From Truepera sp. (GTDB lineage: Bacteria; Deinococcota; Deinococci; Deinococcales; Trueperaceae), in NCBI GenBank assembly GCA_965218435.1, contig CBDCKW010000009.1, forward strand, positions 3,008,001 to 3,072,000: 64,000 nt of DNA. The letters are read 5' to 3'. A model generated the notes under the pieces. It was not told the origin of the DNA and did not search any database. It saw nothing but the letters and a program-made list of their open reading frames with translations. Both the position numbers and the translations under genes were made by a program. Positions 1 through 54,811 of this stretch are shown here, one piece after another (position 1 is the first letter of the stretch; the number at the start of each line of letters is the position of its first letter).

Positions 1-544
1 AAGTCAGCGGCGTTCTAAGTTCGTGGGAAATCGTCGCTAAAAATTCGCTTTTGACCCGGTTCGCCCGTTCCAGCTCACGGTTCTTACGTTCTAACTCGGC
101 TTGGTAGCGCCGGAGGGCGCTCTGCGTACTGCCCTGAACGCTGACGCCGCGCAGCGCCACGAGTTGGGGCACACTGTTGCCGTTGTCGCCTGACTCGAGG
201 GCGCGCGAGGCAAGTTCGGCGGCGACAGATTTACCGCCGCGCAGTGTCACCGTCACCTCTTGCAACCGCAAACCGGCTGCGCCACCTTGCACGCTTATTT
301 GTGTCTCACCTACTTGTGTTTCACCCGGCTCTGAGTCGTTTAGGGCGTCTATCTGAATAAAGTCAGCAAGCCGCCTACCGCTTAGCTCACCGGCTTCATA
401 ACCCAAGTAGTGCGCGAAAGCCTCGTTGACTCGGGTAATTACACCGGCTTCACAGATCGCGGTAGGCTCTAATGTCAGCGCCAGCAGTTGCAACTCAGAT
501 GACAACGCAGCTGCTGTACTCGGTTTTTTCACGCTGTTTACCAC
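1..544 (-). CDS. PAS-domain sensor histidine kinase, N-terminal part (runs off the window start)
   Basis: Not in the ORF track. Manual translation from GTG 544 gives a PAS-like segment (ITRVNEAFAHYLGYEAGELSGRRLADFI), a coiled coil and the HisKA H-box KSEFLATISHELRTPLT at the window edge. Confidence 0.88.
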   Translation of the reverse strand, partial: MVNSVKKPSTAAALSSELQLLALTLEPTAICEAGVITRVNEAFAHYLGYEAGELSGRRLADFIQIDALNDSEPGETQVGETQISVQGGAAGLRLQEVTVTLRGGKSVAAELASRALESGDNGNSVPQLVALRGVSVQGSTQSALRRYQAELERKNRELERANRVKSEFLATISHELRTPLT

Positions 545-49819: not shown

Positions 49820-50047
49820 ATGCCCCAACTCCATTTTTACGTCCCTGACGACGTAGCTAAACAGATTCAAGAAAAGGCTAAGGCCAAAAACCTGAGCGTG
49901 TCGAAGTACGTTGCTGAAATGGTGCAGCGTGAAACGCATTCAGGATGGCCTGAAGGTTATTTTGAGCGTGTCGTCGGCAAGTGGCAAGGCGAGCCGCTCG
50001 AGCGGCCCGAAGAGCTACTCACCGAAGAGCAAGACTCTTTTGATTGA
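49820..50047 (+). CDS. antitoxin (ribbon-helix-helix-like, VapB)
   Basis: MPQLHFYVPDDVA...AKAKNLSVSKYVAEMV; immediately upstream of the PIN toxin. Confidence 0.8.
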   Translation: MPQLHFYVPDDVAKQIQEKAKAKNLSVSKYVAEMVQRETHSGWPEGYFERVVGKWQGEPLERPEELLTEEQDSFD

Positions 50048-50071
50048 GCTTTTAGCTGCGCCGCTTACGAG

Positions 50072-50485
50072 ATGACCTATTTGCTCGACGCCAATGCCTG
50101 CGTTCACCTCCTTAACGGCACTTCAGCTTCCCTTTTAGAACGGTTTCGCCGCGAAAGTCCGTCGACTTTACGTATGTCGTCAGTTGTCAAGGCAGAACGG
50201 GCTTTTGGCGCACGCAACTCGAGCCGACCTGCGGAAAACTTACGCCTGATCGCGTCTTTTTGGGAGCCGTTTGAAAGCTTGCCGTTTGACGACCCCTGCG
50301 CAGAGCAGTACGGTCTTATCCGCGCCGAACTCAAACGCCAAGGGCGGTTAATCGGCGCTAACGACATGTTGATTGCGGCTACCGCCCTAGCTCGTGACGT
50401 GACGCTAATCACGCACAACACGCGGGAGTTCGCGCGGGTACCAGGATTAAAGCTCGAGGATTGGGAAACGCCTGCAGGAACGTAA
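50072..50485 (+). CDS. vapC: VapC PIN-domain toxin
   Basis: YLLDAN, VVKAE, LPFD, YGLIRAELKRQGRLIGANDMLIAA, THNTREF.RVPGLKLEDW. Confidence 0.93.
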   Translation: MTYLLDANACVHLLNGTSASLLERFRRESPSTLRMSSVVKAERAFGARNSSRPAENLRLIASFWEPFESLPFDDPCAEQYGLIRAELKRQGRLIGANDMLIAATALARDVTLITHNTREFARVPGLKLEDWETPAGT

Positions 50486-50759
50486 CGACAACGCTGTCGC
50501 CCAAATCATAAGGGCAGCGTTACCAGGACGACTAAGGACTGTGGCACAACAAAGTCAAGACCAGACGACGTTTGCTGCAGCTGCCGGGCGTTTGAACCAT
50601 ACCGTTTGAACAGCAGTGCTTGACTTCTGTGCTCGAGTTCAAATAGGGACAATTTACGCTATCTAAGGCGCAGACATCGTTCTATAATTGAACAACTTTA
50701 TGAGCTTACCGGGCACTTTTCGGCGCAGGGCGAGTTTTAAGCAACTCCCTACATTAGAA

Positions 50760-51089
50760 ATGTGCCGTTTTAGCTCCCCTGCTCGGCTGAGGGTGGCCGC
50801 ATCTACCGGCCTCGTCACGCTGCTTATCGGTTGGCTCGTGGTCGCACTCTTTTTGGCCCCTTATTGGTCGGCGCAGACGAACTTTCCGGGGCATCAGCAT
50901 CCCAAGGGGACACCGCCGCATACGCACAGCATCGAAGCTGTTCTCGGTCACGCCGTTATGGTGGCTGCGGTCACTGCCGTATTCTTCATACTGCAAGCTT
51001 TCGAGTCGCTACTGTTACCACCCGTTTTGTGGCTCGAGCGCACCCTCCCCAAAAGAGCCCACGGGAGCCGCGCGCCACCACTTTTCTAA
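50760..51089 (+). CDS. putative RAPP arrest-motif leader peptide with His-rich loop (start uncertain: 50700 or 50760)
   Basis: Hydrophobic helix, GHQHPKGTPPHTHS, second hydrophobic segment, C-terminal GSRAPPLF-stop; upstream of copC. Confidence 0.7.
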   Translation: MCRFSSPARLRVAASTGLVTLLIGWLVVALFLAPYWSAQTNFPGHQHPKGTPPHTHSIEAVLGHAVMVAAVTAVFFILQAFESLLLPPVLWLERTLPKRAHGSRAPPLF

Positions 51090-51320
51090 ACGCTCGGCAA
51101 TCAGCCCCTGGCAGAGCTTTGCCTTAACGGAGACGAATCCCGTTGCTGTAACGCTTTATAACACCGTCCAGAGCTCATCGCTTGCAGCGAGCATTTCCAC
51201 AAACACGACACTTAAACGATCACGACACTTAATGCAACACTTAATGTGCGTACCCAGCGGCATTTTCTCAACTGAGAGAATTGCCAACCAGCTGACACCT
51301 ATAGCTTTAGAAAGGCACTG

Positions 51321-51752
51321 ATGAAAACACCCCTGCTATGCACGGTTTTGACATGTATTTTGACCCTTGGAACCCTGAGCTTCGCCCACAGCAGCTTGGT
51401 CTCTTCAAGTCCTAAAGACGACAGCACCGTCAAGGAGCGCCCTACTCAGATCAGCATGACGTTTTCCGAAGAGGTCGAACCGCAATTTTCTACCTTTGTG
51501 GTCTACCCGCTCGGTCAAGAAAAAGATCACGAGGCGCTCGAGGAAAAAGCCGACACCCTCTTGCCTCAAGTCCTGAGTAAGCCTGACGGCAACCAAGTGA
51601 ACGCTAAGCTGACGACCCAAGAGGCGAGCGATACCATCACCTTGGCGCTGCCCAAAGACCTGAAACCCGGCAGTTACGCGGTCATGTGGCGGGCACTCTC
51701 CGTTGATACGCATACCGTCCAAGACCTGATGGTGTTCACCTATCAGCCCTGA
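51321..51752 (+). CDS. copC: copper-binding protein CopC
   Basis: Signal peptide cleavage before His (FA|HSSLVSSSP), FSEEVEP.FS, W..LS.DTH. Confidence 0.9.
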   Translation: MKTPLLCTVLTCILTLGTLSFAHSSLVSSSPKDDSTVKERPTQISMTFSEEVEPQFSTFVVYPLGQEKDHEALEEKADTLLPQVLSKPDGNQVNAKLTTQEASDTITLALPKDLKPGSYAVMWRALSVDTHTVQDLMVFTYQP

Positions 51753-51754
51753 GC

Positions 51755-52699
51755 TTGATAGCACTCGCGCTCGTTAAAGCACTGCTTTTGCTAGGAGCCA
51801 TCTTGCTCGTGGGCAGCGGCGTGACGGCGACGATTGTTGCGCCGGAACTGACTATTACGGGACGCGCCTTACGTCGTCGTATCACCTGGGGAGCCGTCGT
51901 AGGCGCAGGGCTGCTTCTGCTCGGCAGTGCGTTCGACCTCGCGCTGACCCTGCTTAATGCGCTGGGTCGGCTTCCCTCTCGTGACCTAACTACCAGCTAT
52001 CTGGGCAGTACCCGTCACGGTCACGCCATCCTCGTGCGGACGGTGTTGGTCGGCTTGGTTTTACTCTTGACGTTCTGGCTTACCCGCCGTCAAAGCCGCC
52101 CTCAAAACCGTCGGCCCTGGCTTATCGGTATTTACCTTGTCGTAAGCTGTTTGCTCCTGGGTACGTTTAGCTATACGAGTCACGCCGCGGCGATGGGCGG
52201 CACCCCACCGCTATTCGCCGATCTCGCCCATTTTGCCGCCGCAACCGTGTGGGCTGGCCCACTTTTTTATCTCGCGCTCGTGCCGGACTGGGGCGAGCCG
52301 TATCAGACCGGTCTACAAATCGCCTTCAAACGCGTATCGTTTATCGGCCTCCTCAGCGTGCTGACGCTTTTTGCCACGGGCATTTATACGACGCTCGTCC
52401 ATCTGCAAGACCCGGCTCGTTTTGCCACCTCGCCTTACGGTTTCGCGCTTTACGCCAAAGTCGCGCTCGTGCTGATCACCGTAGGCTTGGCGACCGCTAA
52501 CCGTTTCTGGTTGTTACCCGCTTTTTTGCGCCGAGGTGCAGTCCGTTTCAAGAGAGCAGTGCGCCTCGAGAGTGTACTGCTCGTAGCGGTCCTGCTTGCC
52601 ACCGGCGTCCTCACCACCAGCGCCCTGCCTCACGGTTCAGGTGAAGCCGATGCGTGGACTAATTTCGTTCACCTCATTCAGATACTTCAGGGAGACTAA
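51755..52699 (+). CDS. copD: CopD-family copper transport membrane protein
   Basis: SHAAA, DLAHFAAATVWAG, TGIY, SPYG..L..K, ANRF, LES. Confidence 0.88.
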   Translation: MIALALVKALLLLGAILLVGSGVTATIVAPELTITGRALRRRITWGAVVGAGLLLLGSAFDLALTLLNALGRLPSRDLTTSYLGSTRHGHAILVRTVLVGLVLLLTFWLTRRQSRPQNRRPWLIGIYLVVSCLLLGTFSYTSHAAAMGGTPPLFADLAHFAAATVWAGPLFYLALVPDWGEPYQTGLQIAFKRVSFIGLLSVLTLFATGIYTTLVHLQDPARFATSPYGFALYAKVALVLITVGLATANRFWLLPAFLRRGAVRFKRAVRLESVLLVAVLLATGVLTTSALPHGSGEADAWTNFVHLIQILQGD

Positions 52700-53665
52700 A
52701 TGCTTAAGTTTGTTTTACCTACACTAGCTGCAACCCTTTTTGCCGCCGCTTCAGCCCAGCAACCCGTAACGGTTACGTTTAACGGGATGGTCGGTGACGC
52801 GCCGATCGCGTGCGGTCAAGACTATCCCAACATCGGCAGCGAGGGGACAACCATCGCCTTTCAAGACGCCCGGATGTACGTCTCGAACCTCCGCCTCATC
52901 AACGCTGCGGGTCAAGAAGTACCGATTAGCCTCGAGCAAGACGGGCTCTGGCAATATGAGAACGTCGCCCTGCTGGACTTTGAAAACGCCACCGGCGGCT
53001 GTAGCGACGTTGGCACCAAAGCCACCAACAACCAGGTCAAAGGCACCGTACCCGAAGGCAACTACGACGGTTTAGTCTTCGATTTAGGTGTCCCTTTCGA
53101 GCTGAACCACGCCGACGCCACGACCGCACCCTCACCGCTCAACGTGTCGTCACTTTTTTGGAGTTGGCAGTACGGGTATAAGTTTGCCCGTATCGAAATT
53201 CTTAAGGCGCAAGTCGCGGGCTCTAATGCACAGGATGAGACGGTGAACGTCAGTAAAGGGAACCAGGCGAGTGCTAAAGCACTGGGTCACGCAGGTGAAA
53301 TGGATATGGGGGACGGCGCAGCCAACGGCTTTTGGCCGATTCACCTAGGCAGCACCGGTTGCACCTCGCCCGCCCCGGTCGTTAGCCCCACCGCTGAGTG
53401 CGCGCGCCCCAACCTGAGCACGGTACGGCTCGAGTCTTTCAATCCCACAAGCGATACGGTGACCTTAGACGTTGCAAGGTTACTTGAAGGCGTTGACGTC
53501 GGCAAGTCGCTCGAACTGGCCCCTCCCGGCTGCATGTCGGGGTTTGACGACCCCGACTGCCCTACCCTTTTCAAAAACCTCGGCTTAGCCCTCGAAACCG
53601 GGAAAGCCACCGCCTCACAAACGCTCTTCCGCGTGACCGGTGGAGGCGCTCGGACAAGCCGTTAG
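52700..53665 (+). CDS. mbnP: MbnP-family copper-binding protein
   Basis: DARMYVSN, WQ..NVALLDFE, FDLGVPFELNH, WxW motif LFWSWQYGYKF, HLGSTGC, C.RPN, GCMS...DPDC. Confidence 0.9.
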   Translation: MLKFVLPTLAATLFAAASAQQPVTVTFNGMVGDAPIACGQDYPNIGSEGTTIAFQDARMYVSNLRLINAAGQEVPISLEQDGLWQYENVALLDFENATGGCSDVGTKATNNQVKGTVPEGNYDGLVFDLGVPFELNHADATTAPSPLNVSSLFWSWQYGYKFARIEILKAQVAGSNAQDETVNVSKGNQASAKALGHAGEMDMGDGAANGFWPIHLGSTGCTSPAPVVSPTAECARPNLSTVRLESFNPTSDTVTLDVARLLEGVDVGKSLELAPPGCMSGFDDPDCPTLFKNLGLALETGKATASQTLFRVTGGGARTSR

Positions 53666-54811
53666 ATGAAACATCTGCTGTTCATTTTGTTCGTTTTGGG
53701 AGGTGTCCTGGCGCTGCTGGGCACCACCTCCCCACCCGAAGCGTCGCCATCCGGGGCGAGTTATGAGTGGGCGCTGCCGACCGGGTTTCCGACGCCTATT
53801 GTCCCCAAAGACAATCCGATGAGTGCTGAAAAGGTCGCGCTGGGCCGTTACCTTTTTTACGACAAGCGGCTTTCAGGTAACGACACCCAAGCGTGCGCGT
53901 CGTGCCACGAGCAAGCCAAGGCGTTTAGTGACGGCAAAACGGTCGCCGTCGGTTCGACGCAAGAGGCGCACCTGCGTAACGCCCAGAGCTTAACCAACGT
54001 CGCCTATAACCCGACCTTGACCTGGGCGAATCCGGGGCTGACGGGGCTCGAGCAACAGGTGCTCATCCCCCTCTTTGGCGAAGGCCCCATCGAACTTGGG
54101 TTAGCCGGTAAAGAAGAACTCGCCCTCGGCGTGTTCAAACAAGACAAGCGGTATCAAAAGCTCTTTAAGGCCGCGTTCCCGAAAGACGCCGACCCTTTTA
54201 CCGTGAGCAACATCGCCAAGGCGCTCGCCTCGTTTAGCCGCACCATCATCTCGGGCGGGTCGCCGTATGACCGGTTTGTCTACAGCGGGGAGCGTAACGC
54301 GCTCTCCCCTTCGGCGATAAGGGGGATGACGCTGTTTTTTTCGGAACGGACCGAATGCCACCACTGTCACGGCGGCTTTAACTTCAGCGATTCGGCGGTT
54401 CACGAGGGTACCGGGTTTCCTGAAACGCCTTTTCACAACACCGGGCTCTACAATTTGGACGGCCTGGGCGCGTATTCGAAAGGCAACCGGGGGCTCTATG
54501 AGATTACCGGCAAACCCGGCGACATGGGCAAGTTTCGCGCCCCTTCGCTCCGCAACGTAGAGCTGACCGCGCCGTACTTTCACGACGGCAGCGCCCGAAC
54601 ACTTGAGGAGGTCGTCAGTTTTTACGAAGCGGGCGGACGTGTTATCAAGACCGGGCCAAATAGGGGCGACGGTCGGCGTAACCCCTACAAGAGCGGGTTT
54701 GTTCAGGGGTTTAAGCTGACCGACCAAGAGCGAACGGATTTGGTCAACTTTCTGAAAAGCCTGACTGACCGCTCCTTGCTTACAAATTCGGCGCTGAGTA
54801 ATCCGTTTTAG
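53666..54811 (+). CDS. mbnH: MbnH-family di-heme enzyme (MauG/bCcP superfamily)
   Basis: W.LP.GFP.P.VP.DNPMS..KV.LGR.LFYD; heme motifs CASCH and CHHCH; FRAPSLRN...TAPY.HDG; follows mbnP. Confidence 0.9.
   Translation: MKHLLFILFVLGGVLALLGTTSPPEASPSGASYEWALPTGFPTPIVPKDNPMSAEKVALGRYLFYDKRLSGNDTQACASCHEQAKAFSDGKTVAVGSTQEAHLRNAQSLTNVAYNPTLTWANPGLTGLEQQVLIPLFGEGPIELGLAGKEELALGVFKQDKRYQKLFKAAFPKDADPFTVSNIAKALASFSRTIISGGSPYDRFVYSGERNALSPSAIRGMTLFFSERTECHHCHGGFNFSDSAVHEGTGFPETPFHNTGLYNLDGLGAYSKGNRGLYEITGKPGDMGKFRAPSLRNVELTAPYFHDGSARTLEEVVSFYEAGGRVIKTGPNRGDGRRNPYKSGFVQGFKLTDQERTDLVNFLKSLTDRSLLTNSALSNPF

Follow-up and report, generated by a model that had tools for sequence, protein, structure and literature searches.

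The window, as we call the whole 64,000-nt stretch of Truepera sp. DNA analysed here, carries a small leader gene ahead of a copC-copD-mbnP-mbnH copper operon. Comparison with its relatives supports the view that the encoded protein is a conserved, membrane-anchored, histidine-bearing RAPP protein that precedes copper genes in Deinococcota. The leader is real, well conserved and mechanistically coherent; we consider it highly probable that it is a translated, cis-acting arrest leader, and probable that its histidine loop senses a metal. What is newly described is that the bases following the RAPP codons are predicted to pair with the Shine-Dalgarno region of copC (P ~0.99), despite the 231-nt gap between the two. 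Towards the whole model, in which copper is the metal, stalling by default keeps the uptake genes on and copper releases the stall, we lean only slightly. The loci show, at the level of sequence, the anatomy of the leader, its conservation, its fixed spacing and its position before copper genes, and RNA folding predicts that the bases around the stop codon pair with the copC Shine-Dalgarno region, a helix that recurs in the family.

Position and anatomy of the leader

The original prediction described an ORF of about 110 aa beginning at position 50760. The frame 50760-51089 is open (109 residues and a stop codon), but the start has to be revised: the Met at 50760 is absent from the closest homologues, whose start codon matches ATG 50700, which suggests that the leader is probably 129 aa long and that the codon at 50760 encodes Met21 (Table 1). 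Other details stood as predicted. The RAPP codons are followed by Leu-Phe-stop, the leader is without any CxxC, and the distance from the last HxH to RAPP, put at about 48 residues, amounts to 47 residues between the last His and the Arg. In the AlphaFold model of the leader, residues 7-37 form a helix, the His loop is ordered (pLDDT >90) and a second helix is present, and a PDB fold search with this model returned no match at E 0.001 or better. A conserved Pro follows the hydrophobic helix, which we take to argue against signal cleavage at this place.

RAPP near a stop codon is common by chance: within the last 14 residues of stop-to-stop frames of at least 70 codons, it occurs in 27 of 24,020 frames of the window genome (AAPP in 36). 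An upstream hydrophobic helix is found in only two of these 27 RAPP frames, namely the window leader and a paralogue in the same genome (G000:C9:2381074). No sigma-70 consensus promoter was detected in 50480-51400 and no operator was found upstream of the leader, where the DNA aligns poorly with that of the one relative compared. Just upstream of the leader (49820-50485) lie a 75-aa ORF, likely coding for an antitoxin, and then a gene for a VapC-family PIN nuclease.

Table 1. Features of the leader locus, with positions in the window.
Feature	Position	Strand	Basis
Leader ORF	50700..51089	+	start position of closest homologues
Hydrophobic helix Val32-Ala53, predicted uncleaved N-in membrane anchor	50793..50858	+	conservation, AlphaFold helix; topology inferred
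HxH-x6-HxH loop (His65, His67, His74, His76), predicted metal site	50892..50927	+	55/63 loci
47-residue spacer	50928..51068	+	family length 44-47; sequence and hydrophobicity unconserved
RAPP, candidate arrest motif	51069..51080	+	arrest known for the motif in other proteins (PMC10951233, PMC12992588)
Predicted anti-Shine-Dalgarno arm, core 51081-51094 across stop codon	51081..51105	+	pair probabilities
Intergenic spacer, 231 nt, C-rich (C-G skew 0.24)	51090..51320	+	composition, promoter/terminator scans
3' helix arm with the purine-rich copC ribosome-binding region, core 51303-51315	51291..51315	+	RNA folding
copC, periplasmic copper-binding protein (ATG at 51321)	51321..51752	+	PF04234, E 5e-21
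copD, membrane protein, putative copper importer	51755..52699	+	PF05425, E 3e-16
mbnP-family copper-binding protein	52700..53665	+	TIGR04052, 292 bits (cut-off 140)
mbnH-family di-haem enzyme	53666..54811	+	TIGR04039, 522 bits (cut-off 363)

Conservation and spread of the family

A profile built from 53 sequences detects the leader family in 51 of 102 Trueperaceae genomes, a tally that includes one unpublished genome (G256) entering this count only; a first profile made from nine close homologues had matched 40 of 95. The wider profile matched 3 of 198 genomes in the other four families of the phylum, all weakly, and on these matches the leader family is not credibly present elsewhere in the phylum. 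Apart from those in G095 and G203, weak profile matches outside the family were rejected as two ABC permease frames and one off-frame match. With a limit of E 0.001, a search against all proteins returned 70 representatives, and the 60 new ones share the plan by eye. The locus set analysed below consists of 68 fetched loci minus four false positives and two cut by contig ends, plus the window, giving 63.

R-x-P-P is present in 63/63 loci (RAPP in 47, RDPP in 7, RGPP in 6 and RSPP in 3) and lies no more than 12 residues from the frame end in 55 of them. HxH-x6-HxH is likewise found in 55 of the 63, referred to here as the His-type loci, and 44, 45, 46 or 47 residues separate it from the Arg in 3, 11, 19 and 22 loci, respectively (n=55; search window 40-50). 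The expectation that HxH...HxH and RAPP would be conserved in relatives is thus borne out, while the spacer sequence between the His loop and RAPP is unconserved across the family. At the conserved positions all six Arg, all four Pro and both His codons are used, and this free synonymous variation points to selection at the protein level. Among the 55 His-type members, 52 have a hydrophobic first helix, and its N-flank contains a median of four K/R and zero D/E. A CxxC occurs in two of the 55, in both far down the spacer and away from the motif position.

In the original prediction the leader was a membrane-inserting, histidine-liganded switch, and a second hydrophobic segment containing His and Met was noted. 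The anchor, the histidines, RAPP, their spacing and the copper context are indeed conserved, and the family lies outside DUF2946 (see below). A role for the His and Met of the second segment is not supported by the comparison: this stretch is hydrophobic in only 30/55 members (19-residue Kyte-Doolittle mean >=1.6), and within the first 25 spacer residues His occurs in 15/55 and Met in 10/55.

The RDPP variant is kept in seven loci (L174-L179 and L083), five of them before NosL-family genes, and provides a natural test of the second residue. In one close homologue, P0009, the spacer is read in another frame and returns to RAPP at its end, reflecting either compensating frameshifts or a sequencing error. 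Among the matches listed, a DNA pattern scan of the genome contigs with a 46-residue spacing gave at least 113, comprising seven known members and 106 that look like chance or off-frame matches; a metagenome scan gave two loci, one of them usable.

Relationship to DUF2946

A scan against DUF2946 (PF11162), suggested together with the original prediction, gave no match for the window protein. More widely, no Pfam or NCBIfam model matches the window protein or the 53 members, with the sole exception of one member (1/53) that matches PF11162 at E 4e-4; the same-genome paralogue, which comes closest to the model, scores 20.4 bits against a cut-off of 23.7. When the family was compared with Deinococcota DUF2946 using hhalign, a value of 49% was obtained over the last 48 columns only, and this fell to 1.4% without the RAPP tail. 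Because the scores lie below the cut-off, the CxxC is missing and the similarity collapses without the tail, the leader family is, by these profile comparisons, not a DUF2946 member. In the global mode of hhalign the last HxH aligns with an HxH just before the CxxC, so that a remote kinship may exist. In the ESM Atlas, the nearest clusters (0.95) consist of proteins without a name, few of which have a known phylum, and a DUF2946 cluster at 0.92, in which 11% of members carry that label, is a lead only.

True DUF2946 genes show the opposite spread, being found in 2 of 69 in Trueperaceae versus 24/103 and 10/61 in two sister families. Their last Cys lies 41-43 residues before the Arg (search window 36-50), and the CxxC-type DUF2946 leaders of the sister families precede the same gene kinds as the His-type leaders (N-termini inspected). 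Three genomes of the window's genus (L056, L060 and L086) have both leader types in series, in the order His leader, 4Fe-4S membrane protein, CxxC DUF2946 leader, Ig-like exported protein, copC and copD.

Genes downstream of the leaders

Pfam and NCBIfam matches together with the coordinates confirm the predicted copC-copD-mbnP-mbnH operon 231 nt downstream of the window leader. With context profiles built from Pfam- or NCBIfam-checked proteins of the leader loci, copC, copD, mbnP or nosL was found on the same strand within 6.5 kb in 38 of the 55 His-type loci (CopC after 30 leaders, CopD after 21, MbnP after 11 and NosL after 5). The other 17 are without all four within 6.5 kb, two of these being cut by contig ends. 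Copper genes or recurring partners, that is, a NapH-like 4Fe-4S membrane protein, YtkA, PepSY and MauG-type proteins, are present in 52/55. No P-type ATPase or multicopper-oxidase motif was detected in up to 8 kb downstream of the 63 loci, and the heavy-metal ATPases of the window genome are encoded away from the leader locus.

Several of these neighbours deserve a short description. Behind 23 of the 55 leaders comes a membrane protein of about 520 aa (e.g. L085:1041-2636, L052:5917-7497) that has a NapH-like 4Fe-4S region but reaches the cut-off of no family; it is a candidate for reducing copper or for donating electrons during uptake. An exported Ig-like protein of 145 aa without a name (e.g. 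L055:1070-1501), which has a His directly after its signal peptide, follows 19/55 leaders and usually adjoins copC. In one genome, a DDE transposase gene (L057:1170-2213) sits between leader and copC and would uncouple the switch. The paralogue in the window genome (G000:C9:2381074-2381415, equal to L085:675-1016) precedes genes for a NapH-like 4Fe-4S membrane protein and a VanY-type peptidase.

Six paralogues from one genus (L183-L188) are His-less; they keep the helix and RAPP and are located before carbonic anhydrase or TrkH genes, and copper genes follow none of them (0/6). As the six are recent kin, they count as about one event. Two of them lie near nitric-oxide-reductase-like genes; pH, CO2 or K+ as their ligand would be guesses. 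In a further paralogue (L078:588-968), two Cys flank an altered His loop and a strong helix over the ribosome-binding site is predicted; it precedes genes for two periplasmic binding proteins and a FecCD permease, an ABC transporter of the iron/B12 type.

A predicted helix links the stall zone to the copC ribosome-binding site

When the RNA from 51030 to 51345 was folded, the bases right after RAPP paired with the purine-rich region before copC (z -2.2). The probabilities of the thirteen core pairs, which join 51081-51094 to 51303-51315, range from 0.91 to 0.99, and those of seven further pairs from 0.64 to 0.74. A ribosome stalled with the Pro codons in its P and A sites would cover most of the 5' arm. 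During a stall at Pro-Pro, this arm is predicted to be beneath the ribosome or at its edge, and since the bases of the stall zone are predicted to pair with the Shine-Dalgarno region of copC, a stalled ribosome would expose this site.

The pairing was assessed in 45 members, that is, 54 loci with a hand-picked start minus nine near-duplicates (9/63 were without a usable start). The stall zone pairs with its own downstream ribosome-binding site with a mean energy of -12.3 kcal/mol, compared with -8.9 (sd 0.40) when partners were swapped and -10.2 (sd 0.37) when the swaps were GC-stratified, and 0/20,000 permutations reach the cognate value. Pro codons match GGAGG in general, which the partner swap takes into account; the members are kin, and the P values for pairing therefore overstate its significance. 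In full folds, at least five bases of the ribosome-binding site are paired to the stall zone in 25/45 members versus 15 of 150 gene pairs of the window genome, and at distances of 200-420 nt in 6/9 members versus 1/40 controls. In 20/45 members no helix is predicted, and when the flanks are lengthened only 16/45, the window included, retain it; the gene-pair control used short flanks only. Blocking the stall zone lowers the cost of opening the ribosome-binding site from 8.3 to 4.0 kcal/mol in the window (a drop of 4.3), while the family median change is only -1.5 kcal/mol. In two close relatives, whose spacers measure 55 and 57 nt, the helix is preserved with G-U changes, and a comparison of L067 with L071 revealed a compensatory change from a C-G to a U-A pair. 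Among CxxC leaders of the phylum the helix is predicted in 9/30, and it is therefore not peculiar to the His type.

The spacer contains more C than G in 37/44 members versus 48% of 346 control spacers, and the same holds for the last 120 nt of the leader in 39/45 members versus 39% in controls. A rho gene is present in the window genome, and together with the C-rich spacer this indicates that Rho polarity may add to the switch. No terminator-like site was found on the + strand within the spacer 51090-51320. Its C/A-rich part (window 51200-51250) contains three near-repeats of about 10 nt, possibly within a Rho loading stretch.

Proposed mechanism and alternatives

We propose that the leader likely acts only during its own synthesis. 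By analogy with ApdA, ApdP and CruR, the ribosome likely stalls at RAPP by default with the first Pro in the P site; in RAPP-type stalls, the P and A sites are known to hold the two Pro codons (PMC10951233; CruR toeprint, PMC12992588). The stalled ribosome would cover the RNA arm predicted to hide the copC ribosome-binding site and so keep copC-copD-mbnP-mbnH translated. Meanwhile, the anchor would insert N-in and so bring the His loop, which is separated from the P site by 50-61 residues, to the outer side of the translocon or just beyond it. The exit tunnel takes up about 30 residues (PMC4571824), so the loop would lie beyond it and, given the length of the translocon channel, at or past the translocon. 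Metal-driven folding of a zinc finger has been shown to release an arrest peptide (PMC4571824). Copper-induced folding of the His loop could in the same manner pull the chain free and release the stall. The ribosome would then finish two codons later, the helix would close and copC translation would fall, with Rho possibly cutting the untranslated message short. We favour this direction, uptake on and copper off, because CopC/CopD alone have been tied to import (PMC8689200), efflux genes are missing from the loci and CruR provides a precedent.

A broader picture can be drawn, which we regard as possible but rather doubtful. A cysteine-free, four-His nascent-chain sensor would read copper outside the cytoplasm, and its release from RAPP would close a long-range helix (up to ~320 nt) over the start of an uptake operon, combining the logic of CruR with the output of CutF. 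In Trueperaceae, this sensor would have taken the slot occupied by CxxC leaders in the sister families, and three genomes have it together with such a CxxC leader in series. Its paralogues would have been re-tuned through the loop, the Cys-bearing one before the iron/B12-type ABC transporter and the His-less ones before carbonic anhydrase and TrkH.

The strongest competitor, although unlikely in our judgement, is the opposite logic, in which secretion frees the chain and copper bound to the His loop prolongs the stall, so that the operon is switched on for sequestration or resistance. CutF works in this manner, being exported, binding periplasmic copper and opening a stem-loop over the next Shine-Dalgarno sequence, and an anchor, an outer metal loop and a helix over the ribosome-binding site are closer to the anatomy of CutF than to that of CruR; copCD is also found in resistance operons (PMC8689200). 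However, none of the 63 loci has a downstream efflux ATPase or multicopper oxidase motif, the heavy-metal ATPases of the genome being elsewhere, and the motif is RAPP as in CruR and not the EF-P-sensitive PPP of CutF.

It is less likely still that the His loop senses Zn, Ni or Co and that the operon serves a wider metal uptake. A four-His site would also suit these metals. The ligand set is His-only, His-only CutF-like clusters adjoin HupE/UreJ (PMC9973294), some loci start with His-rich exported proteins, one of which weakly matches ZrgA, and there is a weak ZIP match at one locus. The frequency of CopC, CopD, MbnP and NosL genes after the leaders and the shared gene kinds behind the CxxC DUF2946 leaders of the sister families speak against this reading. 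We assign a similarly low probability to an output that consists mainly of Rho-dependent termination as in CruR, with the helix being secondary. The excess of C over G, the presence of rho, the members without a predicted helix and the long spacers, which resemble CruR, would all fit; the cognate pairing is, however, specific and survives swaps and GC stratification, Pro-rich coding by itself raises C in the leader, and Rho output and helix can coexist.

Very unlikely, in our view, is that the leader monitors membrane insertion or secretion capacity in the manner of MifM or SecM and times the synthesis of exported proteins, independently of metal. The downstream genes mostly code for exported or membrane proteins, the His-less paralogues retain the helix-plus-RAPP plan and the second hydrophobic stretch of the window leader could pull during insertion; yet this stretch is unconserved, the four His are invariant at a fixed distance, and copper proteins, not Sec/YidC parts, are encoded downstream. 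That the leader is simply a mature copper-binding membrane protein of the operon with an incidental RAPP and helix, as the chance frequency of RAPP and the confidently modelled His loop might suggest, is more improbable again given an R-x-P-P in every locus behind an unconserved spacer of fixed length, the first-gene position and the cognate pairing with the ribosome-binding site.

Comparison with known systems

The original prediction presented the leader as a candidate new copper-sensing switch. This may hold for the family, but not for the class, which is in print in the form of CruR, CutF, the His-only CutF-like clusters, RAPP before copC and SLIV_18480. We found no account of the Trueperaceae leader family in the literature on RAPP, CruR, CutF or DUF2946 copper leaders, though the supplements of PMC9973294 and PMC12992588 could list members, and six short loop motifs are absent from the searched part of the uORF list of PMC12992588. 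In the supplement of the latter, RAPP uORFs are enriched before copC (133 versus 72 for AAPP). The window leader shows the features of the RAPP/RGPP arrest-peptide class, namely a conserved C-terminal motif, a small protein, a localisation signal and a position first in the operon. The RDPP and RSPP variants, found in 10/63 loci, lie outside the arrest motifs tested in those parts of the cited work that are considered here.

In SecM, it is the stalled ribosome that unmasks the Shine-Dalgarno sequence. The leader would share with SecM and with ApdA/ApdP the RAP/P arrest chemistry and the release by pulling (PMC10951233), but those proteins monitor protein localisation and precede sec genes. A likeness also exists to SLIV_18480 from Streptomyces lividans, a membrane-borne arrest peptide that precedes metal genes and for which His ligands are predicted (PMC12992588). 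SLIV_18480 has four predicted TM helices and a 3-His-1-Met site, whereas the family described here has a contiguous HxH-x6-HxH loop and one conserved helix. With a second hydrophobic stretch in only 30/55 members, its assignment as a four-TM RGPP/RAPP leader of the SLIV_18480 type was rejected.

CutF-like leaders have been collected by rules requiring fewer than 150 aa, PP in the last 15 residues and a same-strand neighbour within 1,000 nt (PMC9973294). The window leader, with 129 aa, PP three residues from the end and a neighbour at 231 nt, fits these rules; as regards the cleavable Sec signal of the class, it has one hydrophobic helix with a basic N-flank, and the stem-loop of the class has a computational equivalent in the helix predicted over the copC Shine-Dalgarno region. 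Clusters 14 and 17 of that collection are likewise small, proline-ended leaders predicted to carry His-rich motifs only, but their neighbours are HupE/UreJ (Ni/Co) (PMC9973294). Judging by genomic context, it is unlikely that our family is identical with these clusters. CutF itself, from Rhodobacter capsulatus, is a metal sensor exported during its translation, and when its ribosome stalls, the stem-loop that masks the following Shine-Dalgarno sequence is opened (PMC9973294, bioRxiv 10.1101/2025.02.05.636593); the counterpart of this stem-loop here is a computed helix. CutF differs in its cleaved Sec signal, CxxxC and PPP motif, in that copper prolongs the stall and in its target, a detoxifying oxidase.

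CruR (Bp2923, DUF2946/PF11162) from Bordetella pertussis is the first gene of a copper-uptake operon and combines an export signal, a C-terminal RAPP that follows the metal motif at a distance of about 45 residues (44-47 here) and a long spacer (PMC9426467). Copper releases CruR, and its CxxC-to-RAPP spacing of 45 has been shown to matter (PMC9426467); arrest was demonstrated in PMC12992588, and CruR homologues precede CopC and MbnPH-like genes (PMC9426467). Unlike the leader described here, which has four His, no Cys motif and a predicted Shine-Dalgarno-masking helix, CruR uses CxxC ligands, its export signal is dispensable and its output has been reported as Rho termination. How copper affects the RAPP stall, and in which compartment, is a question shared by CruR and CutF. 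In the Trueperaceae leaders, the predicted metal loop is short, looks soluble and keeps a fixed distance from the stall, the predicted RNA output could be disrupted and restored by point mutations, and there are natural variants that have or lack the His; the coupling of metal and stall is therefore directly testable. If our model is correct, metal-sensing arrest peptides extend to a His-only copper site and to Deinococcota, and the paralogues constitute a natural panel for learning how the ligand of an arrest peptide is set.
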